The translations under genes and the position numbers were made by a program. Below are positions 1 through 26,700 of a stretch of DNA of 64,000 nucleotides, in pieces (the first letter of the stretch is position 1; every line of letters begins with the position of its first letter). The notes below the pieces were generated by a model. That model worked only from the letters and a program-made list of their open reading frames with translations, ran no database searches and had not been told where the DNA came from. Source of the DNA: Owenia fusiformis (taxonomy: Eukaryota); contig CAIIXF020000001.1 in assembly GCA_903813345.2 (NCBI GenBank), positions 248,001 through 312,000 of the forward strand, given 5' to 3'.

Positions 1-1383
1 CTACAAGTGAATAACATTATTTAAACATGTACCAAATGGATGTACATCGGGCTGTGTACAATGGGTCACTACAAATGAATAACATTGTTTAAACATGTAC
101 CAAATGGATGAACATCGGGCTGGGTACAATGAGTCACTACAAGTCAATAACATTATTTAAACATGTGCCAAATGGATGTACATCGGACTGTGTACAATGG
201 GTCACTACAAGTGAATAACATTATTTAAATATGTACCAAATGGATGAACATTGGGCTGGGTACAATGAGTCACTACAAGTCAATAACATTATTTAAACAT
301 GTGCAAAATGGATGTACATCGGGCTGTGTACAATGGGTCACTACAAATGAATAACATTGTTCAAACATGTACCAAATGGATGAACATCGGGCTGGGTACA
401 ATGAGTCACTACAAGTGAATAACATTATTTAAACATGTACCAAATGGATGTACATTGGTCTGTGTACAATGACTCACTACAAGTGAATAACATTATTTAA
501 ACATGTACCAAATGGATGTACATCGGGCTGTGTACAATGGGTCACAACAAGTGAATAACATTATTTAAACATGTACCAAATGGATGTACATCGGGCTGTG
601 TACAATGGGTCACAACAAGTGAATAACATTATTTAAACATGTACCAAATGGATGTACAGCGGGCTGTGTACAATGGGTCACTACAAGTGAATAACATTAT
701 TTAAACATGTACCAAATGGATGTACATCGGGCTGTGTACAATGGGTTACAACAAGTGAATAACATTATTTAAACATGTACCAAATGGATGTACATCAGGC
801 TGTGTACAATGGGTCACTACAAGTGAATAACATTATTTAAACATGTACCAAATGGATGAACATCGAGCTGGGTACAATGGGTTACAACAAGTGAATAACA
901 TTATTTAAACATGTACCAAATGGATGTACATCGGGCTGTGTACAATGGGTTACAACAAGTGAATAACATTGTTTAAACATGTGCCAAATGGATGTACATC
1001 GGGCTGTGTACAATGGGTCACTACAAGTCAATAACATTATTTAAACATGTGCCAAATGGATGTACATCGGGCTGTGTACAATGGGTCACTACAAGTCAAT
1101 AACATTGTTTAAACATGTACCAAATGGATGTACATCGGGCTGTGTACAATGGGTCACTACAAGTGAATAACATTATTTAAACATGTACCAAATGGATGTA
1201 CATCGGGCTGTGTACAATGGGTCACTACAAATGAATAACATCATTTAAACATGTACCAAATGGATGGAGATTGGGCTGTGTACAATGAGTCACTACAAGT
1301 CAATAACATCATTTAAACATGTACCAAATGGATGTACATCGGGCTGTGTACAATGGGTTACAACAAGTGAATAACATTATTTA
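1..1383. repeat. 68-bp minisatellite, ~20 copies, runs off the window start
   Basis: Unit ctacaagtgaataacattatttaaacatgtaccaaatggatgtacatcgggctgtgtacaatgggtca, starting at 1 and 69. Confidence 0.97.
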
Positions 1384-2010
1384 TCCCACGATTAATGTGT
1401 TATCTGTACAATAACAGCTATTGATATTTCTGATATTATTAAAATCCGTGTGATATTTTCCAGAAAATCGTTTATCAAACTCTTATGCGTGTGATATCGT
1501 TTATCTCACGCATATCCGTGTGATATCACATTTGCATTTCGCGCCACAATATTGTTGGAACTTAGGTCAGATAATTTATTCTCTTTTGGGAAAATAGGTC
1601 CGTTAATTTATTCTCTTTAAGTTTCATTGATGTATTGAATTACGATTGTGTATATAATTTGATTAGAAGGCTGCTAACTAACGATTAAAAATGGTATTTA
1701 TGACGAACTATATCATGTTATTTACTTTTAATTGTTAAAATAAAGTGTTTCAAATATTCAATTGATATTCTAATTTCTAGTTTATATTGTCTGCCAATGT
1801 CCTGGAAATTGGATCAGAACATCACAAGGTGATTGTAATCATGTGATAAACCCAATATGACATAATTTCTCGTGATATCATTTTATCGCCTCGTAGATAT
1901 CAAATATCAACACTCATTCGCTTCGCTCACTCGTGTTGATATTTGCTATCAACTCGGCGATAAAAATGATATCACTCAAAATGATGTGATATTCTGTATT
2001 TATTCCATAA
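1381..2010. mobile_element. Non-autonomous hairpin-containing interspersed element, family uncertain
   Basis: Starts ttatcccac where the minisatellite ends. Long imperfect hairpin at ~1873-1972 (tgatatcattttatcgcc...caacac / gtgttg...ggcgataaaaatgatatca) with a cgcttcgc apex. Organisation resembles 61841-62585 in reverse orientation. Confidence 0.5.
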
Positions 2011-2421
2011 TAACATGTTTCCCCGGGAAAATAACAGGGAATAAAATTGATATTCAAAAAATTTACATATCAGCCAAAATCCCGTAAATCCAGTAATTTC
2101 TCTAGTGTTATTAATCATTTATATTTTTAATTAAAACTTGTTAATAAAAGTAGAAAATGTTATATGATAAATTGTATCATTTTATGTCACAATCATTGGG
2201 TGATGACATATAAAAATTAAAAGTAAGTTTTAGAAAATCATTATTGAATAAATAGGTTATTGATGGTCGTGATGGAATATGAATTTTTTCCTTGAGGCCG
2301 ATATTGGCCTCAGAAAATATCATATTGACACTCGGGCTATCGCCCTCAATCAATTTGACATCTATTTTTGTTAATTACAAAATATACAAAGAAATCATGC
2401 ATTTTTGTGAATTCAGCTTAC

Positions 2422-2595
2422 TTGAACAAGTTGGTGGTATGCCACTCCATCCACCTTCCACGCAGGTTCTTAAGCTCTGTCCATTGAGCGAGTAACCCTC
2501 CATGCAACTGTAAAATGCCAGGTTACCAAAGCTGTTGCCATCGACCTTCACCATTCCATTCTTAGGGTTTGGTAGGGTCATGTTGCATGAAATTG
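2422..2595 (-). CDS. Exon: Sushi domain S4'
   Basis: PISCNMTLPNPKNGMVKVDGNSFGNLAFYSCMEGYSLNGQSLRTCVEGGWSGIPPTCS; acag acceptor, gtaagc donor. Confidence 0.92.
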
Positions 2596-5500
2596 CTGTA
2601 ATAAAAGGCAAATACTATGTCAAATACAGAAAAATGGGGATATTAGGTTTTTTGACTGTCAGGCTTGCAATTATATGATTGGTCAAAATCTGGTGACTTG
2701 TCATGGAAGATCTAAAAAATGTTCACTGGTCATGCTCACTCAGTAAATTATATAGTTATACAAATTATCATAGTTAGCATTACATATTATACCGGTTTGA
2801 ACATAAACATAGTTCAGAGCTATTAGAATTCCGTTTTTCTGCACCGCAACAGAAAAAAGTAGAATTTTTAGTTTTAGTTTTGCAAAAGTTTGCAGAATAT
2901 AGAATTTCTGTTGATTTTTGCGCAATTCATGCTTTGAAAACATAAATTGAACTGAAAGCTTACCTAGCCTTGTTGTAGGTGCTTGTAGATCATTTGAATC
3001 AATTTTAGCTCACTTTTGTAGCGATTTAAACAGAAAACGTTTTATTTTTTGAGGCTGCTTTGTAAGGAACACCAAAATATAAGAAGACTAGGAACACGTT
3101 TTCTATTGCTCCTAGCCAATATATCATCTTTATATTGTTACTAAATATAATTGTGTCCAAATACATGTACACATTAGAAATATATGGCGGTTTTATTTTG
3201 ATTTTCACACTATTTTGGCAAAAATTCCATGAAAAAATCCATGTTAAAATGCAGAATTTTTGCAGAATTTCACATTTTAGCTTGCAGAAATTTGATTTTT
3301 TCTTGCAGAATTTGCATTTTGTAGCACAGAATTCTAGTAGCTCTGATAGTTAGAAAGTACATAATATCATATAAAATTAAATGACATTACACCATATCTA
3401 ATGCATCAAAAATATATCAGTGATAAGTACAGGCATGGGTTCAGGGCTCAGGAGGGCTATCATTTCAATACTTTCAGAGATAATACTTCTCAAGTTAAAT
3501 TTTTTTTTAATCTTTAAAAAGGTTTTTGCCAACTGACTAATGTCATAATGATGTCACCTAGGGTGCAAAATATTTTTAATATGCTACAACATCGAAGTGG
3601 CACATCAAATATGACATGTTATTATTGAAAAGTGTGTTCTTTGTTCAATCTTTGCATTAATTGGTGTTAAAACATATTTTCAATCCTTACATTGGGCTTT
3701 TAACAATAACAATTTTGATCACATATGGTTTTCTAACTCATATTTATCAGCAATATTTCAAATGCAGACCTTAATATTATATCTCAAGATGAGCTTATAA
3801 AAACAGCAGCTGCTAAATTTTGTGTTAACTGCTGGTGTATGAAAAATAATATTAATCCGGCCCACAGCAATGAGAGCAGTAGGCTGTGAGAGGTTCCCCA
3901 CCTTTGAGTAATTATGTCTTAATATACAGGGTGTTCAAAAAAAAACGCAACCCAAAGAAATCGCTGTATCTTGAAAAATAGTGGTTCAATTATGTTCATA
4001 TTTTCAGGAAATAAAGGAGAGACTGTGTATGTATAGCTCCTGTAAATGGTTAGTTGTAAAATATGATGCCTTGGACACCTGCTCAAAAGACAGTTGTACT
4101 AGGAAAATACGAAAAACGCAGTCAGGGGTGACTGCAACCTCAAATAAAAAATTGAATAACTTTTTAACCATAGTGTTTTTGCTCTTCAAATTTGTCACAA
4201 ATCATCTTCATTCACTGTATGGTAAATCTGTAGAGTGAAATCAAAATCACTTCAGGGACTTTACAGTCATGGTTGAAATGATTTCAAATCGCACTCAAAC
4301 ACCCTGGTTCAGGGAGACTTAAGAAGGCATTTTGACCATGACTGTAAAGTCCCTAGAGTGATTTTGATGAAACTCCACAAATTCACCACACATTGAATGA
4401 GGATAATTTGTGCCAAATCTGAAGTGCCAAAACCATGGTTAGAAAGTTATTTGGTTTTATTGTTGTGGCTGTCACCTCTAACTGCGTTTTCATGTTTTCC
4501 TAGAACAACTGTCATTGGAGCAGGTGTTCAAGGCATCATGTTTTACAACTTACTGACAACAGGAGCTATACATACACAGTCTCTTCTTTCTTTTCCTGAA
4601 AAAATGAACATAATTGAATTAGTATTTTCCAAGATATAGTGATTTTCCATTCGCGTTTTTCGTATTTTGCTAGTACAACTGTCTTTTGAGCAAGGGTCCA
4701 AGACATCATGTTTTACAACTAACTAACAACAGGGGCTACACAGTCTCTTCTTTCTTTCCTGAAAATATGAACATAATTGGATGAGTATTTTCCAAGATAT
4801 AGCGATTTCCTTGGGTTGCGTTTTTTTTAACACCCTGTACACAAAAAAAGAATCCTTTCTATATATACTGTTTGCTTATATGGATATAAATTAGAAGCAA
4901 AATCCAACAATATAAAGCTTAAAATATGACCAAATTGATCTGTATGGCTATAAATTATGGACTGAACCATATGCCTGTAAAATATGAATATGACTAAAAT
5001 TGACTATTTGAGTTAAAAGTAAAATCCAGAATGACAAACAGAGGCTCTGTCTATATCTCAAACTTTGTTTAATGAGATGATGAGACAAGTGCATATAAAG
5101 CCTGCTTATAAAGTATGCATGTAAGCAGATGCATTTGGTTGGGAATGATGAATTTGAAAATGCTGCTCCTCACTGTTATGATGCTTTGTGGCATACTTGC
5201 TATTACAAAGACTCAGGAACTAAGTGGAGATGTCAATGTGATGAAAGGTATGCAAATATGATTAGCCTTTAGCAGATTAATTGATGTAGATGCAGCTCAG
5301 CTAGAAGTGATGTGAAAAGTTGTTCAATATTTAAAATTTTGTGAAGCTGACTGACCTGCTGGATGAAACAACTGAATTATTGTGAAATAACTTTTTAATT
5401 GTATATGCTTGTAAGGAGAGGTAAGTATGTAAGTAAAACGTATTGACCTGAAATTAGATGTGAACTGGTGAAGTATATTCAAAAGCGACATGAACAAGGA

Positions 5501-8500
5501 ATTAATATGACAAATCGCATTATCTAGTTGCTCACAATATTCAATTCTGACGTCTTATTTGAGCTTCTGAGAACTTGTAGATGATTTTGAAAAAAACTGG
5601 TCAATTTGAAGAAAGTTAAAAAAATACCTTTTTGACTTTTTTGACTTTGAAAAGGTCATTAACGAATCTTAAGTTAGATTTGAAAGGATATTAACTGTAT
5701 TGATGAATGGATGAAATGTAATAAGATGAATTTAAACTATAGTAAAACAAGATTAATGAAAATAGGAAATACCTCAAAGTATGGAATTGATAAAGATGCC
5801 ATATAACATTATCAAATAATGTAATTGAAAATGTTGAAACTTGTAAATATTTAGGTGTTATTGTGGATGACAAATTAGCATTCAAAGTACTTATTGACAA
5901 GCCCATGATATTGAAAAGCTTTCTTGTAAGATAGGTATTTTTAGAAGGCTTAAACCATTTGTTTCAAAGGAAGCACTCATCACAATTTATAATACAATCA
6001 TATTACCAGAATTTAATTACTGCTCTGGGGAGAATGTTATAATAAAATCTATCTGACTAGACTAGAGAAACTTCAAAAGATGGCAGCACAAATTAAACTG
6101 GGAGCTAATTTTGATGTTTCAAGTGGCACTTTACTTGAGTCCCTAAATTGGACTCCAATTCAGGAAATGATTAGATACAGGAAATCAATTTTAATGTACC
6201 AGACCATTTCAGGCATCTCTCCCCCATATATTTAGAACTGTTTCAAAGAGACAAAGTCTGTCCATAATTATGCTACTAGAGCAGTTGTGGAAAATTCACT
6301 TTATGTACCAAAACCTAAACTTGAAATATTTAAGAAAAGCATATCATATAGCGGTTCACATCTTTGGAACAAGCTTGATAAGACTGTCAAAGAGTCTGAT
6401 TCTGTAAACTCAAAGCATATAAACAATTGTATCAGATCAGAAAATGAAAATTATGTAAATGCATTATTTAAAGACATTGTTCCTTATATTCATGTAATTC
6501 TATAATACAGTAAGTTGTTCTCTATGTTTCATGTAAATGCATACTTTGAAGATGCATATATATGAAATTGTTCCATATGTCCTATATATCTATTTGTATG
6601 TTTCTATATTTATTGTACATATTGTAAATAATTGTAAATTATTACTGGGCCTCTAGGAAGACCAGTTTTGTACTGATAGAGCTACCCAGAATAAATATAG
6701 TTTTCAAATCAAATCAAATCAAATCAACTTCTGAAAACTTGTACAGTAGATGATTTTGAAAAAAACTGAAATCAGTATTTGTTAATTTCTTGGAAGTTAT
6801 TGATAGAGGTCCAATAAATAAATGAGCCATGTTAACATGAAAAGGGAGAAGAAGGTCATGAACGCAAATATGCAGGTTGGCCCGAAAATTAACATTTTAC
6901 AATGTGTTAAGTATATTATGGCTACATTATGCATCATGCTTGCTAAATGAACAACTGATGCTATGATAAAAAGATGCTTTGAGAAAAGGCATTAACGTGA
7001 CAAAATAGCACCACCTAGTTGATCACAATATTATGAGTTCAATCTTAAGTCAGATTTTAACTTCTGAGAACTTGTTGATTTCCAAAAAGTAGTCAATTTG
7101 AGGCAAGTTGAAAAATACCTTGAGAAGGGCATTGTAGATGATTTTGAAAAAAACTTGTAAAGTCAGATTTGAACAACTGAGAAATTGTAGATGGTTTTGA
7201 AAAATAATTGGTCAATGAGAAGCAAGTTGAAAAATACCTTTTTGACCTTGAGAATATCACTGAAGGTCAAATGCCAAATCTAAAGTCATTCAAGAGTTGA
7301 CCAATATGTTAATTTTGGATATTGTAGGACCTAATTAACTTGTTTTGACATGATTAAAATGCAAAACTATTATCATAAATTTTTGAAAAAATAATAAAAT
7401 GTTGTAAAACATTTATTTTGAATTGAACGTTTGATTACATTACATTTACCAAAATAAAGTTAAACAAGTATTTATTGATCACAGCCTAAACTAGGATTTG
7501 GAAATAGCCTGGGAAACAAATTGAATTTGATAATATTGAACAGGTAGTCAATATGTTTACTTTTTGTTTTCTATTAAAATGGATATTGATATTTTATAGA
7601 TGAACCAATCAAGAATGATATTTCTGATGAAAATCTTGAAGAGACAGTGTCAAGAAATAAAAGAAAGGAAAGGATTGGTTGCCCCCCAAGCTATTGGTGC
7701 CTGTTAAGATATATGAACATGTGATGCGTTGATCTAATCATACAAAATAATGTACACTGAAAGACAACCTTACGAGATACAGAGCCGTTTGCTATATGTC
7801 ACATTGTGTACACTTGATATTACATAATAAATATCAAATATATATTTATTCTACTTCCAACTATGAAATTCTTATGTGTTAAACAGGTATCAGGAACGTT
7901 GACTTGGGGATTCAACTTTGCAGTTTCCTGGTGAATTGACAGTGTAACATATCATAACCATCATTTCAAAATATTTAATGCACTAGTGTCTTCTGTGCCT
8001 GCCTCTTAATTCAAGCTCCCATCCTCATCAAAGTATCATACAAGACCACCCTGATATGTCATAATTCAAGCTCCCATCCTTATCAAAGTCTCATACAAGA
8101 CCACCCTGATATGTCATAATTCAAGCTCCCATCCTCATCAAAGTCTCATACAAGACCACCCTGATATGTCATAATTCAAGCTCCCATCCTTATCAAAGTC
8201 TCACACAAGACCACCCTGATATGTCATAATTCAAGCTCCCATCCTCATCAAAGTCTACCACCCTGATATGTCATAATTCAAGCTCCCATCCTTATCAAAG
8301 TCTCATACAAGACCACCCCGATATGTCATAATTCAAGCTCCCATCCTCATCAAAGTCTCACACAAGACCACCCTGATATGTCATAATTCAAGCTCCCATC
8401 CTTATCAAAGTCTCACACAAGACCACCCTGATATGTCATAATTCAGCTCCAATCCTCATCAGTCTCACACAAGACCATCCTGATATGTCATAATTCAAGC

Positions 8501-11500
8501 TCCCATCCTTATCAAAGTCTCATACAAGACCACCCTGATATGTCATAATTCAGCTCCAATCCTCATCAAAGTCTCATACAAGACCACCCTGATATGTCAT
8601 AATTCAAGCTCCCATCCTTATCAAAGTCTCATACAAGACCACCCTGATATGTCATAATTCAAGCTCCCATCCTTATCAAAGTCTCATACAAGACCACCCT
8701 GATATGTCATAATTCAGCTCCAATCCTCATCAAAGTCTCATACAAGACCACCCTGATATGTCATAATTCAAGCTCCCATCCTTATCAAAGTCTCATACAA
8801 GACCACCCTGATATGTCATAATTCAGCTCCAATCCTCATCAAAGTCTCATACAAGACCACCCTGATATGTCATAATTCAAGCTCCCATCCTTATCAAAGT
8901 CTCATACAAGACCACCCTGATATGTCATAATTCAAGCTCCCATCCTTATCAAAGTCTCATACAAGACCACCCTGATATGTCATAATTCAAGCTCCCATCC
9001 TTATCAAAGTCTCATACAAGACCACCCTGATATGTCATAATTCAAGCTCCCATCCTCATCAAAGTCTCACACAAGACCACCCTGATATGTCATAATTCAA
9101 GCTCCAATCCTCATCAAAGTCTCACACAAGACCACCCTGATATGTCATAATTCAAGCTCCCATCCTTATCAAAGTCTCATACAAGACCACCCTGATATGT
9201 CATAATTCAAGCTCCCATCCTTATCAAAGTCTCATACAAGACCACCCTGATATGTCATAATTCAAGCTCCCATCCTTATCAAAGTCTCATACAAGACCAC
9301 CCTGATATGTCATAATTCAAGCTCCCATCCTTATCAAAGTCTCACACAAGACCACCCTGATATGTCATAATTCAAGCTCCCATCCTTATCAAAGTCTCAT
9401 ACAAGACCACCCTGATATGTCATAATTCAAGCTCCCATCCTTATCAAAGTCTCATACAAGACCACCCTGATATGTCATAATTCAAGCTCCCATCCTTATC
9501 AAAGTCTCATACAAGACCACCCTGATATGTCATAATTCAGCTCCAATCCTCATCAAAGTCTCATACAAGACCACCCTGATATGTCATAATTCAAGCTCCC
9601 ATCCTTATCAAAGTCTCATACAAGACCACCCTGATATGTCATAATTCAAGCTCCCATCCTTATCAAAGTCTCATACAAGACCACCCTGATATGTCATAAT
9701 TCAAGCTCCCATCCTTATCAAAGTCTCATACAAGACCACCCTGATATGTCATAATTCAGCTCCAATCCTCATCAAAGTCTCATACAAGACCACCCTGATA
9801 TGTCATAATTCAAGCTCCCATCCTTATCAAAGTCTCATACAAGACCACCCTGATATGTCATAATTCAAGCTCCCATCCTTATCAAAGTCTCATACAAGAC
9901 CACCCTGATATGTCATAATTCAAGCTCCCATCCTCATCAAAGTCTCACACAAGACCACCCTGATATGTCATAATTCAAGCTCCAATCCTCATCAAAGTCT
10001 CACACAAGACCACCCTGATATGTCATAATTCAAGCTCCCATTCTCATCAAAGTCTCACACAAGACCACCCTGATATGTCATAATTCAAGCTCCCATCCTT
10101 ATCAAAGTCTCACACAAGACCACCCTGATATGTCATAATTCAAGCTCCAATCCTCATCAAAGTCTCATACAAGACCACCCTGATATGTCATAATTCAGCT
10201 CCAATCCTCATCATAGTCTCATACAAGACCACCCTGATAAGTCATAATTCAAGCTCCCATCCTCATCAAAGTCTCACACAAGACCACCCCAATATGTCAT
10301 AATTCAAACTCCCATCCTCATCAAAGTCTCACACAAGACAACCCTGATATGTCATAATTCAAGCTCCAATCCTCATCAAAGTCTCACACAAGACCACCCT
10401 GATATGTCATAATTCAAGCTCCCATTCTCATCAAAGTCTCACACAAGACCACCCTGATATGTCATAATTCAAGCTCCCATCCTTATCAAGGTCTCACACA
10501 AGACCACCCTGATATGTCATAATTCAAGCTCCCATCCTTATCAAAGTCTCACACAAGACCACCCTGATATGTCATAATTCAAGCTCCAATCCTCATCAAA
10601 GTCTCACACAAGACCACCCTGATATGTCATAATTCAAGCTCCCATCCTCATCAAAGTCTCACACAAGACCACCCTGATATGTCAAAATTCAAGCTCCCAT
10701 CCTCATCAAAGTCTCACACAAGACCAATCTGATATGACATAATTCAAGCTCCCATCCTCATCAAAGTCTCATACAAGACCACCCTGATATGTCATAATTC
10801 AAGCTCCAATCCTCATCAAAGTCTCACACAAGACCACCCTGATATGTCATAATTCAAGCTCCCATCCTCATCAAAGTCTCACACAAGACCACCCTGATAT
10901 GTCATAATTCAAGCTCCCATCCTTATCAAAGTCTCATACAAGACCACCCTGATATGTCATAATTCAAGCTCCCATCCTCATCAAAGTCTCACACAAGACC
11001 ACCCTGATATGTCATAATTCAAGCTCCCATCCTTATCAAAGTCTCATACAAGACCACCCTGATATGTCATAATTCAAGCTCCCATCCTTATCAAAGTCTC
11101 ATACAAGACCACCCTGATATGTCATAATTCAAGCTCCCATCCTCATCAAAGTCTCACACAAGACCACCCTGATATGTCATAATTCAAGCTCCAATCCTCA
11201 TCAAAGTCTCACACAAGACCACCCTGATATGTCATAATTCAAGCTCCCATCCTTATCAAAGTCTCACACAAGACCACCCTAATATGTCATAATTCAAGCT
11301 CCCATCCTCATCAAAGTCTCACACAAGACCACCCTGATATGTCATAATTCAAGCTCCCATCCTTATCAAGGTCTCACACAAGACCAATCTGATATGTCAT
11401 AATTCAAGCTCCCATCCTTATCAAAGTCTCACACAAGACCACCCTGATATGTCATAATTCAAGCTCCAATCCTCATCAAAGTCTCACACAAGACCACCCT

Positions 11501-14500
11501 GATATGTCATAATTCAAGCTCCCATCCTTATCAAAGTCTCACACAAGACCACCCTGATATGTCATAATTCAAGCTCCCATCCTCATCAAAGTCTCACACA
11601 AGACCACCCTGATATGTCATAATTCAAGCTCCCATCCTTATCAAAGTCTCACACAAGACCACCCTGATCAAGGTCTCACACAAGACCACCCTGATATGTC
11701 ATAATTCAAGCTCCAATCCTCATCAAAGTCTCACACAAGACCACCCTGATATGTCATAATTCAAGCTCCCATCCTTATCAAAGTCTCACACAAGACCACC
11801 CTGATATGTCATAATTCAAGCTCCCATCCTTATCAAAGTCTCACACAAGACCACCCTGATATGTCATAATTCAAGCTCCCATCCTCATCAAAGTCTCACA
11901 CAAGACCACCCTGATATGTCATAATTCAAGCTCCCATCCTTATCAAAGTCTCACACAAGACCACCCTGATATGTCATAATTCAAGCTCCAATCCTCATCA
12001 AAGTCTCACACAAGACCACCCTGATATGTCATAATTCAAGCTCCCATCCTTATCAAAGTCTCACACAAGACCACCCTGATATGTCATAATTCAAGCTCCC
12101 ATCCTTATCAAAGTCTCACACAAGACCACCCTGATATGTCATAATTCAAGCTCCCATCCTTATCAAAGTCTCATACAAGACCACCCTGATATGTCATAAT
12201 TCAAGCTCCCATCCTTATCAAAGTCTCACACAAGACCACCCTGATATGTCATAATTCAAGCTCCCATCCTTATCAAAGTATCATACAAGACCACCCTGAT
12301 ATGTCATAATTCAAGCTCCCATCCTTATCAAAGTCTCATACAAGACCACCCTGATATGTCATAATTCAAGCTCCCATCCTCATCAAAGTCTCACACAAGA
12401 CCACCCTGATATGTCATAATTCAAGCTCCAATCCTCATCAAAGTCTCACACAAGACCACCCTGATATGTCATAATTCAAGCTCCCATCCTTATCAAAGTC
12501 TCATACAAGACCACCCTGATATGTCATAATTCAAGCTCCCATCCTTATCAAAGTCTCATACAAGACCACCCTGATATGTCATAATTCAAGCTCCCATCCT
12601 TATCAAAGTCTCATACAAGACCACCCTGATATGTCATAATTCAAGCTCCCATCCTTATCAAAGTCTCACACAAGACCACCCTGATATGTCATAATTCAAG
12701 CTCCCATCCTTATCAAAGTCTCATACAAGACCACCCTGATATGTCATAATTCAAGCTCCCATCCTTATCAAAGTCTCATACAAGACCACCCTGATATGTT
12801 ATAATTCAAGCTCCCATCCTTATCAAAGTCTCATACAAGACCACCCTGATATGTCATAATTCAGCTCCAATCCTCATCAAAGTCTCATACAAGACCACCC
12901 TGATATGTCATAATTCAAGCTCCCATCCTTATCAAAGTCTCATACAAGACCACCCTGATATGTCATAATTCAAGCTCCCATCCTTATCAAAGTCTCATAC
13001 AAGACCACCCTGATATGTCATAATTCAAGCTCCCATCCTCATCAAAGTCTCACACAAGACCACCCTGATATGTCATAATTCAAGCTCCAATCCTCATCAA
13101 AGTCTCACACAAGACCACCCTGATATGTCATAATTCAAGCTCCCATTCTCATCAAAGTCTCACACAAGACCACCCTGATATGTCATAATTCAAGCTCCCA
13201 TCCTTATCAAAGTCTCACACAAGACCACCCTGATATGTCATAATTCAAGCTCCAATCCTCATCAAAGTCTCATACAAGACCACCCTGATATGTCATAATT
13301 CAGCTCCAATCCTCATCATAGTCTCATACAAGACCACCCTGATAAGTCATAATTCAAGCTCCCATCCTCATCAAAGTCTCACACAAGACCACCCCAATAT
13401 GTCATAATTCAAACTCCCATCCTCATCAAAGTCTCACACAAGACAACCCTGATATGTCATAATTCAAGCTCCAATCCTCATCAAAGTCTCACACAAGACC
13501 ACCCTGATATGTCATAATTCAAGCTCCCATTCTCATCAAAGTCTCACACAAGACCACCCTGATATGTCATAATTCAAGCTCCCATCCTTATCAAGGTCTC
13601 ACACAAGACCACCCTGATATGTCATAATTCAAGCTCCCATCCTTATCAAAGTCTCACACAAGACCACCCTGATATGTCATAATTCAAGCTCCAATCCTCA
13701 TCAAAGTCTCACACAAGACCACCCTGATATGTCATAATTCAAGCTCCCATCCTCATCAAAGTCTCACACAAGACCACCCTGATATGTCAAAATTCAAGCT
13801 CCCATCCTCATCAAAGTCTCACACAAGACCAATCTGATATGTCATAATTCAAGCTCCCATCCTCATCAAAGTCTCATACAAGACCACCCTGATATGTCAT
13901 AATTCAAGCTCCAATCCTCATCAAAGTCTCACACAAGACCACCCTGATATGTCATAATTCAAGCTCCCATCCTCATCAAAGTCTCACACAAGACCACCCT
14001 GATATGTCATAATTCAAGCTCCCATCCTTATCAAAGTCTCATACAAGACCACCCTGATATGTCATAATTCAAGCTCCCATCCTCATCAAAGTCTCACACA
14101 AGACCACCCTGATATGTCATAATTCAAGCTCCCATCCTTATCAAAGTCTCATACAAGACCACCCTGATATGTCATAATTCAAGCTCCCATCCTTATCAAA
14201 GTCTCATACAAGACCACCCTGATATGTCATAATTCAAGCTCCCATCCTCATCAAAGTCTCACACAAGACCACCCTGATATGTCATAATTCAAGCTCCAAT
14301 CCTCATCAAAGTCTCACACAAGACCACCCTGATATGTCATAATTCAAGCTCCCATCCTTATCAAAGTCTCACACAAGACCACCCTAATATGTCATAATTC
14401 AAGCTCCCATCCTTATCAAAGTCTCACACAAGACCACCCTGATATGTCATAATTCAAGCTCCCATCCTTATCAAAGTCTCATACAAGACCACCCTGATAT

Positions 14501-17500
14501 GTCATAATTCAAGCTCCCATCCTTATCAAAGTCTCACACAAGACCACCCTGATATGTCATAATTCAAGCTCCCATCCTTATCAAAGTCTCACACAAGACC
14601 ACCCTGATATGTCATAATTCAAGCTCCCATCCTTATCAAAGTCTCACACAAGACCACCCTGATATGTCATAATTCAAGCTCCCATCCTTATCAAGGTCTC
14701 ACACAAGACCACCCTGATATGTCATAATTCAAGCTCCCATCCTTATCAAAGTCTCACACAAGACCACCCTGATATGTCATAATTCAAGCTCCCATCCTTA
14801 TCAAAGTCTCATACAAGACCACCCTGATATGTCATAATTCAAGCTCCCATCCTTATCAAAGTCTCACACAAGACCACCCTGATATGTCATAATTCAAGCT
14901 CCCATCCTTATCAAAGTCTCATACAAGACCACCCTGATATGTCATAATTCAAGCTCCCATCCTCATCAAAGTCTCACACAAGACCACCCTGATATGTCAT
15001 AATTCAAGCTCCCATCCTTATCAAAGTCTCATACAAGACCACCCTGATATGTCATAATTCAAGCTCCCATCCTTATCAAAGTCTCACACAAGACCACCCT
15101 GATATGTCATAATTCAAGCTCCCATCCTTATCAAAGTCTCATACAAGACCACCCTGATATGTCATAATTCAAGCTCCCATCCTCATCAAAGTCTCACACA
15201 AGACCACCCTGATATGTCATAATTCAAGCTCCCATCCTTATCAAAGTCTCACACAAGACCACCCTGATATGTCATAATTCAAGCTCCCATCCTCATCAAA
15301 GTCTCACACAAGACCACCCTGATATGTCATAATTCAAGCTCCCATCCTTATCAAAGTCTCACACAAGACCACCCTGATATGTCATAATTCAATCTCCCAT
15401 CCTCATCAAAGTCTCACACAAGACCAACCTGATATGTCATAATTCAAGCTCCCATCCTTATCAAAGTCTCACACAAGACCACCCTGATATGTCATAATTC
15501 AAGCTCCCATCCTCATCAAAGTCTCACACAAGACCACCCTGATATGTCATAATTCAAGCTCCCATCCTTATCAAAGTCTCACACAAGACCACCCTGATAT
15601 GTCATAATTCAAGCTCCCATCCTTATCAAAGTCTCACACAAGACCACTCTGATATGTCATAATTCAAGCTCCCATCCTTATCAAAGTCTCACACAAGACC
15701 ACCCTGATATGTCATAATTCAAGCTCCCATCCTTATCAAGGTCTCACACAAGACCAATCTGATATGTCATAATTCAAGCTCCCATCCTTATCAAAGTCTC
15801 ACACAAGACCACTCTGATATGTCATAATTCAAGCTCCCATCCTTATCAAAGTCTCACACAAGACCACCCTGATATGTCATAATTCAAGCTCCCATCCTTA
15901 TCAAAGTCTCACACAAGACCACTCTGATATGTCATAATTCAAGCTCCCATCCTTATCAAAGTCTCATACAAGACCACTCTGATATGTCATAATTCAAGCT
16001 CCCATCCTTATCAAAGTCTCACACAAGACCACCCTGATATGTCATAATTCAAGCTCCCATCCTTATCAAAGTCTCACACAAGACCACTCTGATATGTCAT
16101 AATTCAAGCTCCCATCCTTATCAAAGTCTCATACAAGACCACCCTGATATGTCATAATTCAAGCTCCCATCCTTATCAAAGTCTCACACAAGACCACCCT
16201 GATATGTCATAATTCAAGCTCCCATCCTTATCAAAGTCTCACACAAGACCACCCTGATATGTCATAATTCAAGCTCCCATCCTTATCAAAGTCTCACACA
16301 AGACCACCCTGATATGTCATAATTCAAGCTCCCATCCTTATCAAAGTCTCACACAAGACCACCCTGATATGTCATAATTCAAGCTCCCATCCTTATCAAA
16401 GTCTCACACAAGACCACCCTGATATGTCATAATTCAAGCTCCCATCCTTATCAAAGTCTCACACAAGACCACCCTGATATGTCATAATTCAAGCTCCCAT
16501 CCTTATCAAAGTCTCATACAAGACCACCCTGATATGTCATAATTCAAGCTCCCATCCTTATCAAAGTCTCACACAAGACCACCCTGATATGTCATAATTC
16601 AAGCTCCCATCCTCATCAAAGTCTCACACAAGACCACCCTGATATGTCATAATTCAAGCTCCCATCCTTATCAAAGTCTCACACAAGACCACCCTGATAT
16701 GTCATAATTCAAGCTCCCATCCTCATCAAAGTCTCACACAAGACCACCCTGATATGTCATAATTCAAGCTCCAATCCTCATCAAAGTCTCACACAAGACC
16801 ACTCTGATATGTCATAATTCAAGCTCCCATCCTTATCAAAGTCTCATACAAGACCACCCTGATATGTCATAATTCAAGCTCCCACCCTTATCAAAGTCTC
16901 ACACAAGACCACCCTGATATGTCAGGTTAACATTTAGAGAGAAAACTCAACCAACTTACGATCACATCTTGGGTCAGAGCCCGAGAATTTTCCATTTGGC
17001 TGACATGTTCTTTTGGATTGGCCATCTGTGACGAGGGTGTATCCACGGTTGCACTTGTAATCTACGGTTTCTCCCACAGGGAAATCGTTAAAGGCTCCTA
17101 TCTTCTCACCATTAGCTGGGTCTCCTGGGTCACCACAGGATGTTGTGCCTTCATCTAGATAGGAAATTCAAAGTACAGTGAAAATTTCCAAGTGGAACAC
17201 TTCTTAGAGGTACAAAGAGATGCACTTATACAGGTTTTACTGTAATGAACAAAGCTTTAGAATGCACAAACATGCCCAAAGGTAGGATTGTGGTCTCATG
17301 GATCAAACAGAGGTCAGCAAAATGAAAACTGCTCTACCATTGCGCTATATGGGTGGAGAATACCTTATCTGATCTGTGGAGAACCCATTACAAATAAACT
17401 TACTATTGCAAAAGGGTAGAGTTCCACTCCAGGTGCCATCGTCCTGGCATGTACGGGTTGTCTGTCCATTCAGGCCCACTCCTGCTGCACAACGGAAAGT

Positions 17501-17724: not shown

Positions 17725-20700
17725 GTCCAGACATCTCCTCCTAGAGCTTTTGGTCTTGGGCCTTCATACTTGGTCGATAAACTAAGTGAGAAAGTGGGCA
17801 TTCTACGAAGGTCAGAAGTCAAGGTCATTCCAAAGTCAATTTATAGGTATTGGCATTTTAAGACCCTGGGGCCTGCTGTTACCCTTGGGGATCATGATTA
17901 GTTGACCTGAAGTCAAAGTCAATGTTTATGTTCCGAGGTCATCTCAAGGTCTAATGTGAAAATCAGGTATTTATGTTTTAAAGCCTTTGGGCAAGTCCAC
18001 CTCAATTCAAGAATCAAACAAGGTCAAATGATCAATATACAGGTATTTAGCATTTTATGAGGGCTGCTGTGACCCTTGGTGATCCACTCAAACGGATAGA
18101 TTGCTAGTTATTGTACATGTAATATCATTTAAGATTCTATATTCATCTATTAATACATCATTAATTCATTGTTTTAATTTTTGGCTGCAGAGGTCTTAAT
18201 TTATACATGTACCAGCAATACATGTGTAGTTATATGTGCTTCTATACCAACACAACATTGGCACTTTTTTGGCAGCTTTTTGAAGTAATTTCTTTAAATT
18301 ATTATTACCATTAGATTCTTTGAAAACATAGGATAAGGGCTATGCTAAGGGCTGATGTGAAAAAGTCAGTCCACCTCGGTGGGAATTGAACCCACAACCT
18401 ACCGATTAGATCTCGAATGCTCTTCCAGTTGAGCTACGGAGCCGACTGCTTTAACACAACACTGCATAAATGGCTATCCTCGTATTTATCACTACATTAT
18501 GATTACTTACAAAGACAGTCAGGCAGCACACCATCCCAGTCCCCATACTCCATACACATAACGGGGTACTCTTTCATACCATTCCTAAAGTTGTATTTGA
18601 TGTTGCACTTGTATGTCAAGATATAGCCTTGTGGGTAGAATCCTGCAGTATTCTGAGGTTGTCCATTCTGAAGCCTTGGTAGCAGAGAAGATGAACAGCC
18701 AACCACTGAAAACAATGACACATTGTAAATATAATGAGCAGCCAACCACTGCAAGCAATGACACATTGTAAATATAATGAGCAGCCAACCACTGAAAACA
18801 ATGACACATTATAAATATAATGAGCAGCCAACCACTGAAAACAATGACACATTGTAAATATAATGAGCAGCCAACCACTGAAAATAATGACACATTGTAA
18901 ATATAATGAGCAGCCAACTACTGAAAACAATGACACATTGTAAATATAATGAGCAGCCAACTACTGAAAACAATGACACATTGTAAATATAATGAGGAGC
19001 CAACCACTGCAAACAATGACACATTGTAAATATAATGAGCAGCCAACTACTGAAAACAATGACACATTGTAAATATAATGAGCAGCCAACCACTGAAAAC
19101 AATGACACATTGTAAATATAATGAGCAGCCAACCACTGAAAACAATGACACATTGTAAATATAATGAGCAGCCAACCACTGAAAATAATGACACACTGTA
19201 AACATAATGAGCAGCCTAACACTGAAAGCAATGACACATTGTAAATATAATGAGTAGCCAACTACTGAAAACAATGACACATTGTAAATATAATGAGTAG
19301 CCAACCAGTAAGTGACATTATCATCAGAAAATTAATGTCACTGCTGTTTTTTTAATATAAGTTTCCATACGTTATATAAAAAATAATCAAAAAATATAAA
19401 AATCGGATAGAAGGGGAAGTTGATAGAGGGTGAGTAATATGTCTTTGAGATGGAACTTTATACAAATTTGTGAATTTGTGAAATGAACTCAGTTACTAAG
19501 TAAGAAACTTGATGTTACACCTCTGAAGAGTGAAAAACAGGGAAGTTTGGAGTTATACGTAATAAAGTCAAGTAACATATTGTATCATGTCTTATACTCA
19601 TTACTCTCCCCCTCCATCCAATTTGTATATAACGTATGGAAACTTATTTTTAAAAACAGCAATGACATTAAATTTGTGATGATAATGTCACTTACAAATT
19701 ATTTTTTTTTGCCTGATTTATTAACATTGAATTTTGCATGTTGGTGACAATGCACCTTTTTTAATAGATCTTATATCTTAGAAGTGTATCGGTCATTTAG
19801 CAATTCAATTGCAAACTTTCTCTTGAAAAAATAAATCATCCAGATTAGTTGAATATTCTTGCAGAAATTGCCTACTCCCCCTCCATCCATTTTGTTTGAT
19901 CATCGGGCGTGCATGTTTTATATATATATATATAACTGCCACGATGGACTTATAATAATCAGGATGAAATTGACTTATGGTATGACCTTGACCTATAACC
20001 TTTTGATCATCAAGGTTGTTAAACAGGGAGATAGATGCAAGTTAGAAATAACATAAATAACAGAACAGAGCTATTACCCTTGTATTTGATCCAGAATCCT
20101 TTATCTGTATCATCCAGGTTGAGCTCAGTGTCAAAGGTCAACCTTACTTCACTCTCTGTACTGGTCATTGGAGCAATAGTCTTTCTCCCACAGAGATTCA
20201 GTTTGTCTTTGAAACCTGAAAGCATAATATGTAATCATTTATGTAAAAGTCAATCTATTTAAATGTCAATAACTATACAGTAAAACCTGTGCATATGAAA
20301 CACTCTCCACACTACAGATTGTCCTTAGATTTCACTTTGGAATAGAACACTTTCAAAGTATTTAAATGTCAATAACAATACAGTAAAACCTGTGCATATG
20401 AAACACTCTCCACACTACAGATTGTCCTTAGATTTCACTTTGGAATAGAACACTTTCAAAGTATTTAAATGTCAATAACTATACAGTAAAACCTGTGCAT
20501 ATGAAACACTCTCCACATTACAGATTGTCCTTAGATTTCACTTTGGAATAGAACACATTCAAAGTATTTAAATGTCAATAACTATACAGCAAAACCTGTG
20601 CATATGAAACACTCTCCACACTACAGATTGTCCTTAGATTTCACTTTGGAATAGAACACTTTCAAAGTATTTAAATGTCAATAACTATACAGTAAAACCT

Positions 20701-23700
20701 GTGCATATGAAACACTCTCCACACTACAGATTGTCCTTAGATTTCACTTTGGAAAAGAACACTTTCAAAGTATTTAAATGTCAATAACTATACAGTAAAA
20801 CCTGTGCATATGAAACACTCTCCACATTACAGATTGTCCTTAGATTTCACTTTGGAATAGAACACATTCAATCTATTTAAATGTCAATAACTATACAGTA
20901 AAACCTGTGCATAGGGAACACTCTCCACATTACAGATTGTCCTTAGATTTCACTTTAGAATAGAACACTTTCAAAGTATTTAAATGTCAATAACTATACA
21001 GTAAAACCTGTGCATAGGGAACACTCTCCACATTACAGATTGTCCTTAGATTTCACTTTGGAATAGAACACATTCAATCTATTTAAATGTCAATAACTAT
21101 ACAGTAAAACCTGTGCATAGGGAACACTCTCCACATTACAGATTGTCCTTAGATTTCACTTTAGAATAGAACACTTTCAAAGTATTTAAATGTCAATAAC
21201 TATACAGTAAAACCTGTGCATAGGGAACACTCTCCACACTACAGATTGTCCTTAGATTTCACTTTGGAATAGAACACTTTCAAAGTATTTAAATGTCAAT
21301 AACTATACAGTAAAACCTGTGCATATGAAACACTCTCCACATTACAGATTGTCCTTAGATTTCACTTTGGAAAAGAACACTTTCAAAGTATTTAAATGTC
21401 AATAACAATACAGTAAAACCTGTGCATATGAAACACTCTCCACATTACAGATTGTCCTTAGATTTCACTTTAGAATAGAACACTTTCAAAGTATTTAAAT
21501 GTCAATAACTATACAGTAAAACCTGTGCATATGAAACACTCTCCACATTACAGATTGTCCTTAGATTTCACTTTAGAATAGAACACTTTCAAAGTATTTA
21601 AATGTCAATAACTATACAGTAAAACCTGTGCATAGGGAACACTCTCCACATTACAGATTGTCCTTAGATTTCACTTTGGAATAGAACACTTTCAAAGTAT
21701 TTAAATGTCAATAACAATACAGTAAAACCTGTGCATATGAAACACTCTCCACACTACAGATTGTCCTTAGATTTCACCGCGGAATAGAACACTTTCAAAG
21801 TATTTAAATGTCAATAACTATACAGTAAAACCTGTGCATATGAAACACTCTCCACACTACAGATTGTCCTTAGATTTCACTTTGGAATAGAACACTTTCA
21901 AAGTATTTAAATGTCAATAACAATACAGTAAAACCTGTGCATATGAAACACTCTCCACACTACAGATTGTCCTTAGATTTCACCGCGGAATAGAACACTT
22001 TCAAAGTATTTAAATGTCAATAACTATACAGTAAAACCTGTGCATATGAAACGCTCTCCACACTACAGATTGTCCTTAGATTTCACTTTGGAATAGAACA
22101 CTTTCAAAGTATTTAAATGTCAATAACTATACAGTAAAACCTGTGCATATGAAACACTCTCCACACTACAGATTGTCCTTAGATTTCACCGCGGAATAGA
22201 ACACTTTCAAAGTATTTAAATGTCAATAACTACACAGTAAAACCTGTGCATAGGGAACACTCTCCACACTACAGATTGTCCTTAGATTTCACTTTGGAAT
22301 AGAACACTTTCAAAGTATTTAAATGTCAATAACTATACAGTAAAACCTGTGCATAGGGAACACTCTCCACATTACAGATTGTCCTTAGATTTCACTTTGA
22401 AATAGAACACTTTCAAAGTATTTAAATGTCAATAACTATACAGTAAAACCTGTGCATAGGGAACACTCTCCACATTACAGATTGTCCTTAGATTTCACTT
22501 TGAAATAGAACACTTTCAAAGTATTTAAATGTCAATAACTATACAGTAAAACCTGTGCATAGGGAACACTCTCCACACTACAGATTGTCCTTAGATTTCA
22601 CTTTGGAATAGAACACTTTCAAAGTATTTAAATGTCAATAACTATACAGTAAAACCTGTGCATATGAAACACTCTCCACACTACAGATTGTCCTTAGATT
22701 TCACTTTGGAATAGAACACATTCAAAGTATTTAAATGTCAATAACTATACAGTAAAACCTGTGCATATGAAACACTCTCCACACTACAGATTGTCCTTAG
22801 ATTTCACTTTAGAATAGAACACTTTCAAAGTATTTAAATGTCAATAACTATACAGTAAAACCTGTGCATAGGGAACACTCCCCACACTACAGATTGTCCT
22901 TAGATTTCACTTTAGAATAGAACACTTTCAAAGTATTTAAATGTCAATAACTATACAGTAAAACCTGTGCATATGAAACGCTCTCCACACTACAGATTGT
23001 CCTTAGATTTCACTTTGGAATAGAACACTTTCAAAGTATTTAAATGTCAATAACTATACAGTAAAACCTGTGCATATGAAACACTCTCCACACTACAGAT
23101 TGTCCTTAGATTTCACTTTGGAAAAGAACACTTTCAAAGTATTTAAATGTCAATAACTATACAGTAAAACCTGTGCATATGAAACACTCTCCACACTACA
23201 GATTGTCCTTAGATTTCACTTTGGAAAAGAACACTTTCGAAGTATTTAAATGTCAATAACTATACAGTAAAACCTGTGCATAGGGAACACTCTCCACACT
23301 ACAGATTGTCCTTAGATTTCACTTTGGAATAGAACACCTTCAAAGTATTTAATTGTCAATAACTATACAGTAAAACCTGTGCATAGGGAACACTCTCCAC
23401 ACTACAGATTGTCCTTAGATTTCACTTTGGAATAGAACACTTTCAAAGTATTTAAATGTCAATAACTATACAGTAAAACCTGTGCATATGAAACACTCTC
23501 CACACTACAGATTGTCCTTAGATTTCACTTTGGAATAGAACACTTTCAAAGTATTTAAATGTCAATAACTATACAGTAAAACCTGTGCATATGAAACACT
23601 CTCCACACTACAGATTGTCCTTAGATTTCACTTTGGAATAGAACACATTCGAAGTATTTAAATGTCAATAACTATACAGTAAAACCTGTGCATAGGGAAC

Positions 23701-26700
23701 ACTCTCCACACTACAGATTGTCCTTAGATTTCACTTTGGAAAAGAACACTTTCGAAGTATTTAAATGTCAATAACTATACAGTAAAACCTGTGCATATGA
23801 AACACTCTCCACACTACAGATTGTCCTTAGATTTCACTTTGGAATAGAACACTTTCAAAGTATTTAAATGTCAATAACTATACAGTAAAACCTGTGCATA
23901 TGAAACACTCTCCACACTACAGATTGTCCTTAGATTTCACTTTGGAAAAGAACACTTTCAAAGTATTTAAATGTCAATAACTATACAGTAAAACCTGTGC
24001 ATAGGGAACACTCTCCACACTACAGATTGTCCTTAGATTTCACTTTAGAATAGAACACTTTCAAAGTATTTAAATGTCAATAACTATACAGTAAAACCTG
24101 TGCATAGGGAACACTCTCCACATACAGATTGTCCTTAGATTTCACTTTGGAGTAGAACACATTCAAAGTATTTAAATGTCAATAACTATACAGTAAAACC
24201 TGTGCATATGAAACACTCTCCACACTACAGATTGTCCTTAGATTTCACTTTGGAAAAGAACACTTTCAAAGTATTTAAATGTCAATAACTATACAGTAAA
24301 ACCTGTGCATATGAAACACTCTCCACACTACAGATTGTCCTTAGATTTCACTTTGGAATAGAACACTTTCAAAGTATTTAAATGTCAATAACTATACAGT
24401 AAAACCTGTGCATATGAAACACTCTCCACACTACAGATTGTCCTTAGATTTCACTTTGGAATAGAACACTTTCAAAGTATTTAAATGTCAATAACTATAC
24501 AGTAAAACCTGTGCATATGAAACACTCTCCACACTACAGATTGTCCTTAGATTTCACTTTGGAATAGAACACTTTCAAAGTATTTAAATGTCAATAACTA
24601 TACAGTAAAACCTGTGCATATGAAACACTCTCCACACTACAGATTGTCCTTAGATTTCACTTTGGAAAAGAACACTTTCGAAGTATTTAAATGTCAATAA
24701 CTATACAGTAAAACCTGTGCATAGGGAACACTCTCCACACTACAGATTGTCCTTAGATTTCACTTTGGAAAAGAACACTTTCGAAGTATTTAAATGTCAA
24801 TAACTATACAGTAAAACCTGTGCATATGAAACACTCTCCACACTACAGATTGTCCTTAGATTTCACTTTGGAATAGAACACTTTCAAAGTATTTAAATGT
24901 CAATAACTATACAGTAAAACCTGTGCATATGAAACACTCTCCACACTACAGATTGTCCTTAGATTTCACTTTGGAAAAGAACACTTTCAAAGTATTTAAA
25001 TGTCAATAACTATACAGTAAAACCTGTGCATAGGGAACACTCTCCACACTACAGATTGTCCTTAGATTTCACTTTAGAATAGAACACTTTCAAAGTATTT
25101 AAATGTCAATAACTATACAGTAAAACCTGTGCATAGGGAACACTCTCCACATACAGATTGTCCTTAGATTTCACTTTGGAGTAGAACACATTCAAAGTAT
25201 TTAAATGTCAATAACTATACAGTAAAACCTGTGCATATGAAACACTCTCCACACTACAGATTGTCCTTAGATTTCACTTTGGAAAAGAACACTTTCAAAG
25301 TATTTAAATGTCAATAACTATACAGTAAAACCTGTGCATATGAAACACTCTCCACACTACAGATTGTCCTTAGATTTCACTTTGGAATAGAACACTTTCA
25401 AAGTATTTAAATGTCAATAACTATACAGTAAAACCTGTGCATATGAAACACTCTCCACACTACAGATTGTCCTTAGATTTCACTTTGGAATAGAACACTT
25501 TCAAAGTATTTAAATGTCAATAACTATACAGTAAAACCTGTGCATATGAAACACTCTCCACACTACAGATTGTCCTTAGATTTCACTTTGGAATAGAACA
25601 CTTTCAAAGTATTTAAATGTCAATAACTATACAGTAAAACCTGTGCATATGAAACACTCTCCACACTACAGATTGTCCTTAGATTTCACTTTGGAATAGA
25701 ACACTTTCAAAGTATTTAAATGTCAATAACTATACAGTAAAACCTGTGCATAGGGAACACTCTCCACATACAGATTGTCCTTAGATTTCACTTTGGAATA
25801 GAACACTTTCAAAGTATTTAAATGTCAATAACAATACAGTAAAACCTGTGCATAGGGAACACTCTCCACACTACAGATTGTCCTTAGATTTCACTTTGGA
25901 ATAGAACACTTTCAAAGTATTTAAATGTCAATAACTATACAGTAAAACCTGTGCATATGAAACACTCTCCACACTACAGATTGTCCTTAGATTTCACTTT
26001 GGAATAGAACACTTTCAAAGTATTTAAATGTCAATAACTATACAGTAAAACCTGTGCATAGGGAACACTCTCCACATACAGATTGTCCTTAGATTTCACT
26101 TTGGAATAGAACACTTTCAAAGTATTTAAATGTCAATAACTATACAGTAAAACCTGTGCATATGAAACACTCTCCACACTACAGATTGTCCTTAGATTTC
26201 ACTTTGGAATAGAACACATTCAAAGTATTTAAATGTCAATAACTATACAGTAAAACCTGTGCACAGGGAACACTCTCCACACTACAGATTGTCCTTAGAT
26301 TTCACTTTGGAATAGAACACTTTCAAAGTATTTAAATGTCAATAACTATACAGTAAAACCTGTGCATAGGGAACACTCTCCACATACAGATTGTCCTTAG
26401 ATTTCACTTTGGAATAGAACACTTTCAAAGTATTTAAATGTCAATAACTATACAGTAAAACCTGTGCATATGAAACACTCTCCACACTACAGATTGTCCT
26501 TAGATTTCACTTTGGAAAAGAACACTTTCGAAGTATTTAAATGTCAATAACTATACAGTAAAACCTGTGCATAGGGAACACTCTCCACATACAGATTGTC
26601 CTTAGATTTCACTTTGGAATAGAACACTTTCAAAGTATTTAAATGTCAATAACTACACAGTAAAACCTGTGCATAGGGAACACTCTCCACACTACAGATT

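Follow-up and report, generated by a model that had tools for sequence, protein, structure and literature searches.

A 68-bp minisatellite in an Owenia fusiformis Sushi-CUB gene, probably a mirage of the next exon start

Mirages in amphioxus and the host gene in Owenia

Tandem repeats that span an exon-intron boundary have been described in amphioxus, where they are called "mirages" and lie in globin genes (available text of PMC3087553). The BflGb6 mirage comprises the end of an intron and the start of an exon in 3-6 units of 150-160 bp, and the BflGb9 mirage covers the 3' border of an exon. Earlier work on Adh3, as quoted in the same text, gives mirage units of 10-72 bp. AG or GT is kept by many of the copies, not by all, and RT-PCR found regular splicing despite the mirages; the generating mechanism is called unclear in that part of the paper (PMC3087553). 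The mirages of PGBD5 and troponin C are also from amphioxus, according to the accessible portion of PMC3902484. A literature search, with most subscription journals outside its reach, found no mirages outside amphioxus. The Rogers model, as cited in the available text of PMC3087553, explains intron gain or growth by tandem duplication across AG/GT signals.

The window analysed here, a stretch of 64,000 nucleotides from Owenia fusiformis, begins inside a 68-bp tandem array (1-1383, minus strand). Tandem Repeats Finder reports 20.3 copies with 92% matches, no indels and a score of 2381, and the array is cut by the window's left end. It sits on the gene's strand in the intron that follows the Sushi exon 2422-2595 of a minus-strand gene. 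Its units run head to tail on that strand, with a piece of exon-like sequence in each unit and a splice signal in most, and it probably belongs to the mirage kind that is already known. Like the BflGb6 mirage, it appears to join the 3' end of an intron to the 5' part of the next exon, head to tail within a gene. AG is found in many of its copies, not in all, as in the amphioxus mirages, and 68 bp is within the range given for Adh3. The acceptor-side and donor-side forms known from the amphioxus globins are both present in this gene as well, in a 43-bp and a 73-bp array (see below). The three arrays of this gene have at least 20 (68-bp), 14 (43-bp) and 18 (73-bp) copies, however, compared with 3-6 in BflGb6. 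Unlike the amphioxus mirages, the 68-bp array runs off the window before an exon border is reached. As in the Rogers model, a duplication that carries a splice signal would put extra copies in the intron and lengthen it, but here no new intron position arises; an existing intron is inflated by a duplication that has grown into a minisatellite of 20-plus copies.

The host is a multi-exon animal gene made up of Sushi and CUB modules. Its open frames, flanked by splice signals as expected, are found at about 63.6, 60.6/60.2, 59.4, 58.8, 58.3, 57.3, 56.7/56.4, 48.8/20.1, 18.6, 17.5, 17.0 and 2.5 kb. All seven exons submitted to Pfam returned Sushi (PF00084) or CUB (PF00431), with three of these hits below the curated cut-off. 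Exon 2422-2595 (E2.5, minus strand) has the acceptor ttacag at 2596-2601, the donor GT at 2421-2420, phase 1 at both ends and a Sushi (PF00084) E value of 5.7e-09, and it is the exon that would join the predicted exon outside the window. The Sushi exon S5 (SKCGAPDKHPLST...; 58151-58324, minus strand, exon start at 58324, Sushi E value 1.4e-10) is the in-window paralog of the exon start in the array. The first cysteine is the third full codon in eight of the nine real Sushi exons of the gene.

The gene contains an internal duplication: blocks 63660-57182 and 18705-2422 (minus strand) share at least four Sushi modules, identically ordered, and two CUB modules lie between the blocks. This duplication of the Sushi block is old. 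The best full-length exon matches between the two blocks are colinear and pair E63.5 of the first block with E18.6 of the second (score 100), the split exon at 60.6/60.2 kb (E60) with E17.5 (score 158, 30 identities), E59.3 with E17.0 (score 144), and E58.75 with E2.5 (score 125). Because the blocks are colinear and S5 takes the fifth place in the first of them, an S5-type exon is expected after exon 2422-2595. The sequence-only reading, an earlier note made from the letters of this DNA, had named S5 as the next module on the grounds of the protein's periodicity, and the colinear block order bears this out.

Searches among known proteins found no product of this gene. A protein search with exon 2422-2595 (proteins of 101-2000 aa) returned one candidate and none scored, and a search with the ORF in the array (4-156, minus strand; 28-90 aa) returned no candidate. 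Among the best 150 of 7135 protein representatives by Sushi-repeat number, exon 2422-2595 had no ortholog and no HC..PD.HP motif was found. In blastp of nine exons against the best 150 of 7135 representatives, identity was at most 61% over 41-67 residues.

The 68-bp unit and its likeness to a Sushi exon start

Each 68-bp unit, read on the minus strand, has 41 nt that resemble an exon start, followed by 27 nt that resemble an intron end with a terminal TAG; their consensus is TGACCCATTGTACACAGCCCGATGTACATCCATTTGGTACATGTTTAAATAATGTTATTCACTTGTAG. Along the gene strand a unit reads ...ttattcacttgtag|TG ACC CAT TGT..., and it can also be written as TGACCC...GGTACA followed by TGTTTAAATAATGTTATTCACTTGTAG. 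Within the array, ...CATCCATTTGGTACA is followed by TGTTTAAAT.... In a consensus copy (unit 1157-1224) the exon-like part is 1184-1224 (minus strand), consisting of TG and 13 codons that encode THCTQPDVHPFGT, and the intron-like part is 1157-1183 (minus strand; tgtttaaataatgttattcacttgtag). The intron-like 27 nt give the next unit its AG and its pyrimidine-rich stretch. The exon-like 41 nt have a GC content of 0.46 and the remaining 27 nt one of 0.22, a shift within the unit that fits an exon-plus-intron origin.

Since exon 2422-2595 ends in phase 1 with A as its last base, a unit spliced to it reads A+TG, a methionine codon. A splice from 2422 to the base after TAG would translate as M followed by THCTQPDVHPFGT and CLNNVIHL, up to a stop. 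This is the layout that the sequence-only reading had written down, and its (M)THCTQPDVHPFGT peptide and phase-1 fit agree with the acceptor, donor, phase and last base of the exon. An in-frame stop, which had been claimed for each copy, is indeed found after 22-23 codons in 20 of the 20 copies in the window. The terminal TAG is replaced by TTG in six of the 20, so that the AG reported as changed to TG in several copies is retained in 14. The same reading had counted at least 20 decoy 3' splice sites; plausible acceptors are present as described, but with 14 copies keeping AG a figure of 20 is too high for the window.

The variation among the copies is spread evenly over the unit. Thirteen of the 41 exon-like columns and seven of the 27 intron-like columns are variable, with four, three and five of them at codon positions 1, 2 and 3. 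This even spread indicates copies without coding constraint, as expected for non-coding duplicates. Sets of variants are common to the copies at 69-136, 205-272 and 341-408, which are every second unit. The 68-bp unit has no other occurrence in the window, and a metagenome scan with its 23-nt core gave no matches.

The likeness to Sushi exons was assessed by an in-register comparison of 2 nt and 13 codons downstream of each phase-1 acceptor. The unit scores 37 (BLOSUM62) with S5 (SKCGAPDKHPLST), with identity at 6 of 13 residues and at 23 of 41 bases, and from -15 to 13 with eight other Sushi exon starts. The paralogous exon starts E63.5 and E18.6, E59.3 and E17.5, and E58.75 and E2.5 score 30, 43 and 37 with 18-24 of 41 bases identical, while non-paralogous pairs of Sushi exon starts score between -20 and 18. 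The unit peptide T-H-C-T-Q-P-D-V-H-P-F-G-T has its cysteine at the third full codon, a phase-1 start and the xxP...G pattern of the gene's modules. In a scan of all 127,924 six-frame positions with the S5 13-mer, scores above 25 were found only in S5 itself (74) and in copies of the array (27-37). When the targets were ten Sushi exon starts, about 1.2 million comparisons gave a background maximum of 32, reached twice, and no background position equalled 37. The resemblance to the S5 start that the earlier note had pointed out is therefore as strong as that of true paralog pairs and above all background.

At the DNA level the signal is weaker. An in-register identity of 23 of 41 bases also occurs at two background positions. 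In a gapped local alignment of the 68-bp unit to the exon junctions, the best score was 12, equal to the 95th percentile of the null (12) and not above shuffled sequences. Pfam made no Sushi hit at E values up to 10 on the 21-residue unit peptide, which spans no more than the initial fifth of a module; this miss weighs little because 21 residues are too short. The same search gave weak sub-threshold hits to MBT and Vts1, which were taken as chance. Given the weak DNA-level tests, the case for homology rests mainly on the protein-level score together with position and phase. Taken together, the view that the 68-bp unit represents an amplified 3' splice site with about 41 nt of an S5-type Sushi exon start is well supported.

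The unit stems from an old paralog of S5 and is no recent copy of S5 itself. Paralogous exons of this gene have 53-57% DNA identity, and the unit has 56% identity to S5 over 41 bases, which is like that of the paralogs and thus points to a paralogous source. The array was also considered as a donor-side copy of exon 2422-2595, and this was rejected; the best donor-side scores were 10, 10 and 8, all with other exons, against a shuffled median of 9.

Sister arrays and other minisatellites in the window

The same gene carries one acceptor-side and one donor-side array of the proposed kind. The 43-bp array (18691-19307, minus strand) is made of 28 nt of intron end (..cattgttttcag) and the first 15 nt of the Sushi exon 18705-18517, with a score of 53 against a null 99th percentile of 15. 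Its unit is tatatttacaatgtgtcattgttttcag|TGGTTGGCTGCTCAT, and the last copy is the real acceptor, continuous with exon 18705-18517. A pattern search found 14 unit starts including the real one, and cag precedes 12 of the 13 others.

The 43-bp array also has long stretches that are open in all three minus-strand frames, with ORFs of 101-150 aa. The acceptor three units upstream of the real one is in frame (129 nt), and its use would add a hydrophobic 43-residue insert if no stop-bearing variant lay between. A stop-bearing variant (TAG) is present in 4 of the 13 copies.

The 73-bp array (62584-63481, minus strand) starts in the last bases and the donor of the Sushi exon 63660-63466 (gcatgttcag|gtaaat), and its start reads gcatgttcag|gtaaatgtagtacc. 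The unit scores 24 against the exon end and 12 intron bases, where the shuffled 99th percentile is 13.5. Further blocks of the 73-bp (and a 67-bp) family lie at 61617-61840 and 60660-60929 (minus strand). Eighteen further 73-bp copies in the three blocks have GT in one case and GC in 17. The three blocks are parted by other sequence, as if insertions had split one array. In the 43-bp and the 73-bp arrays alike, the authentic splice site belongs to the copy that is joined to the exon body.

Seven tandem arrays in the window have periods of at least 40 bp and at least 10 copies each. The 55-bp array (8007-16924; two overlapping Tandem Repeats Finder rows with about 67 and about 96 copies) begins 35 nt from the donor at 16960, the 103-bp array (20256-32599; 120 copies) begins 40 nt from the acceptor at 20215, and the 52-bp array (48976-55804; about 130 copies) begins 42 nt from the acceptor at 48933. 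The 45-bp array (40311-41037) lies 219 nt upstream of the 187-codon ORF 41256-41819 (plus strand) and is the only one that is far from the exons of this gene. These four arrays were tried as derivatives of exon borders and rejected, since their acceptor and donor scores were not above those of shuffled sequences. A splice site with an exon edge is thus part of three of the seven arrays (43, 73 and 68 bp), and three others (55, 103 and 52 bp) start 35-42 nt from a splice site. The 68-bp array is like the 55-, 103-, 52- and 45-bp arrays in period, copy number, homogenisation (92% in the 68-bp array) and intronic place, but unlike them its unit carries an exon start.

Several other elements occur in the window. 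The ORF 41256-41819 lies on the strand opposite to the gene, inside a large intron, and encodes a Cys/His-rich stretch. It was placed near RING-finger clusters in the Atlas with a best score of 0.90, which is to be taken as a lead only. The tail of this ORF has HKHGAS repeats, encoded by an 18-bp tandem repeat at 41739-41810. Judged by eye, the ORFs 47110-47877 (minus strand), 46968-47282 (plus strand) and 5898-6505 (plus strand) resemble what is left of a mariner/Tc1-type transposase and a LINE reverse transcriptase.

Origin of the array and alternative explanations

The 68-bp array is proposed to be a mirage-type minisatellite derived from ~27 nt at the end of an intron joined to ~41 nt at the start of the next Sushi exon, with a probability of roughly 0.7. 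A 68-bp segment across the 3' splice site would have been duplicated in tandem, and then expanded and homogenised, presumably through slippage or unequal exchange. Because such a duplication spans the end of the intron and the start of the exon, the copies end up within the intron, upstream of the acceptor that is authentic. Their source would be an exon paralogous to S5, the fifth module in the second Sushi block of the gene. The authentic exon would then lie to the left of position 1, after the last copy, and would begin like TGACCCATTGTACACAG. This prediction follows from the logic of tandem duplication and from the analogy with the 43-bp array, and an intact Sushi exon beyond the left end of the window is likely on these grounds.

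The copies in the window would be non-coding pseudo-acceptors, and use of any upstream copy would give a premature stop. The spliceosome would normally take the copy that is joined to an exon body and a downstream donor (exon definition), and the array would mainly inflate the intron. The sequence itself shows the array with its phase and AG, the homology of the exon-like part and the two sister arrays. We infer the exon outside the window, the way in which the array expanded and the disuse of its copies; a use of the copies as decoys is speculation.

Raw reads of three RNA runs and contigs of one DNA run (X1) were compared with 1089-3000, a stretch that takes in the edge and part of the array. 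A high-copy repeat cluster (1381-2357) lies between the array and exon 2422-2595, and the X1 word depth over it is 4,000-335,000, against 64.4 for single-copy sequence. RNA reads from other copies of these repeats break off at 1379-1381 and 1996-2004, and the cluster probably consists of transposable elements. The gene-strand 5' edge of the array (about 1380-1383) adjoins this cluster, a point that the sequence-only reading did not contain. One X1 contig lacks 1381-2357, and 35 other letters link its array to 2358 (joint 1228 to 2358); these letters are absent from the window at up to 3 mismatches. The cluster resembles an insertion polymorphism at the edge of the array.

In the haplotype of this X1 contig about 100 nt separate the donor of exon 2422-2595 from the start of the array, and the ancestral intron was therefore probably short, with the array making up most of it. 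The array edge of this contig is only 4 nt ahead of the exon-like part (gtag|TGAC), after the 35 unrelated letters. Since a start of 4 nt misfits an intact first unit with the full 27-nt intron part, the edge has been rearranged in at least one haplotype. The X1 word depth on consensus-like copies is 9,856 and 14,233, which is ~150-220 times single-copy, although this depth is not a copy number. As it is far above 20 x 64, there are likely to be copies beyond the 20 seen, further left or possibly at other loci. One RNA read pair (X22) lies on exon 2422-2595 and none on the array copies at 1089-1344, the gene itself not being covered by the three runs.

The main alternative is an orphaned or relocated array, which would have the same S5-type origin but no intact exon after it, because the gene has lost that exon or is itself truncated or in decay at this point, or because the repeat family occurs elsewhere too. 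In its favour, the far end of the array is beyond the window, the X1 word depth of ~150-220 times single-copy would allow other loci, the 5' edge differs between haplotypes, and three RNA runs gave a single read pair on exon 2422-2595. However, exon 2422-2595 is intact and has a good phase-1 donor, and the array is exactly where the next acceptor is expected, on the right strand. The authentic exon also adjoins both of the arrays of this gene that can be checked (43-bp and 73-bp). An orphaned array is thus unlikely, though it is the alternative that fares best.

An ordinary intronic minisatellite that resembles a Sushi exon start by chance is a far weaker candidate and very improbable. Four of the seven arrays in the window (55, 103, 52 and 45 bp) have no exon-derived part, and neither the local DNA alignment of the 68-bp unit to the junctions nor Pfam with the peptide speaks for homology. 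Against this, the score of 37 exceeds every background position, the maximum being 32 over about 1.2 million comparisons. The paralog matched is the one that was predicted, and the match lies on the gene strand, right after AG and in the phase that is needed, with the cysteine at the position fixed in the family. Chance would also have to account for the GC shift between the two parts of the unit.

That the copies are functional, whether translated as repeats or micro-exons or serving as decoy acceptors under regulation that lead to nonsense-mediated decay, is likewise very improbable. In favour of it, 14 of 20 copies have a plausible acceptor, and the CUB exon at 48933 uses the form ttgtag| as its real one. 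Against it, 68 is not a multiple of 3, a stop follows after 22-23 codons in every copy, the substitutions have no codon-position bias, AG is lost in 6 of 20, and the published mirages are reported in the available text of PMC3087553 to leave splicing undisturbed; the lack of RNA reads on copies 1089-1344 says little since the gene is not covered.

The positions of the seven arrays raise the question whether the birth of minisatellites in this genome is tied to splice junctions and does not occur just anywhere in introns, perhaps in an animal outside the lancelets. Such a general tie is improbable. If it were true, and not a mere trace of formerly short introns, it would mean a junction-associated mutational process that inflates introns. 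New introns and exons could draw their raw material from this process, as could splicing control based on decoys.

The array as a mirage would be a clean example of introns growing by repeated copying of their own splice borders, and of an exon outside the sequence in hand that can be predicted from its duplicated start. With three arrays in one gene, on the acceptor and the donor side, it would be a good case for how splicing passes over at least a dozen additional sites that are near-perfect. One may also ask whether donor copies are disabled more readily, since GT is changed to GC in 17 of 18 copies of the 73-bp array and AG to TG in 6 of 20 copies of the 68-bp array. For the annotation of genes of this kind, such copies can mislead gene predictors.
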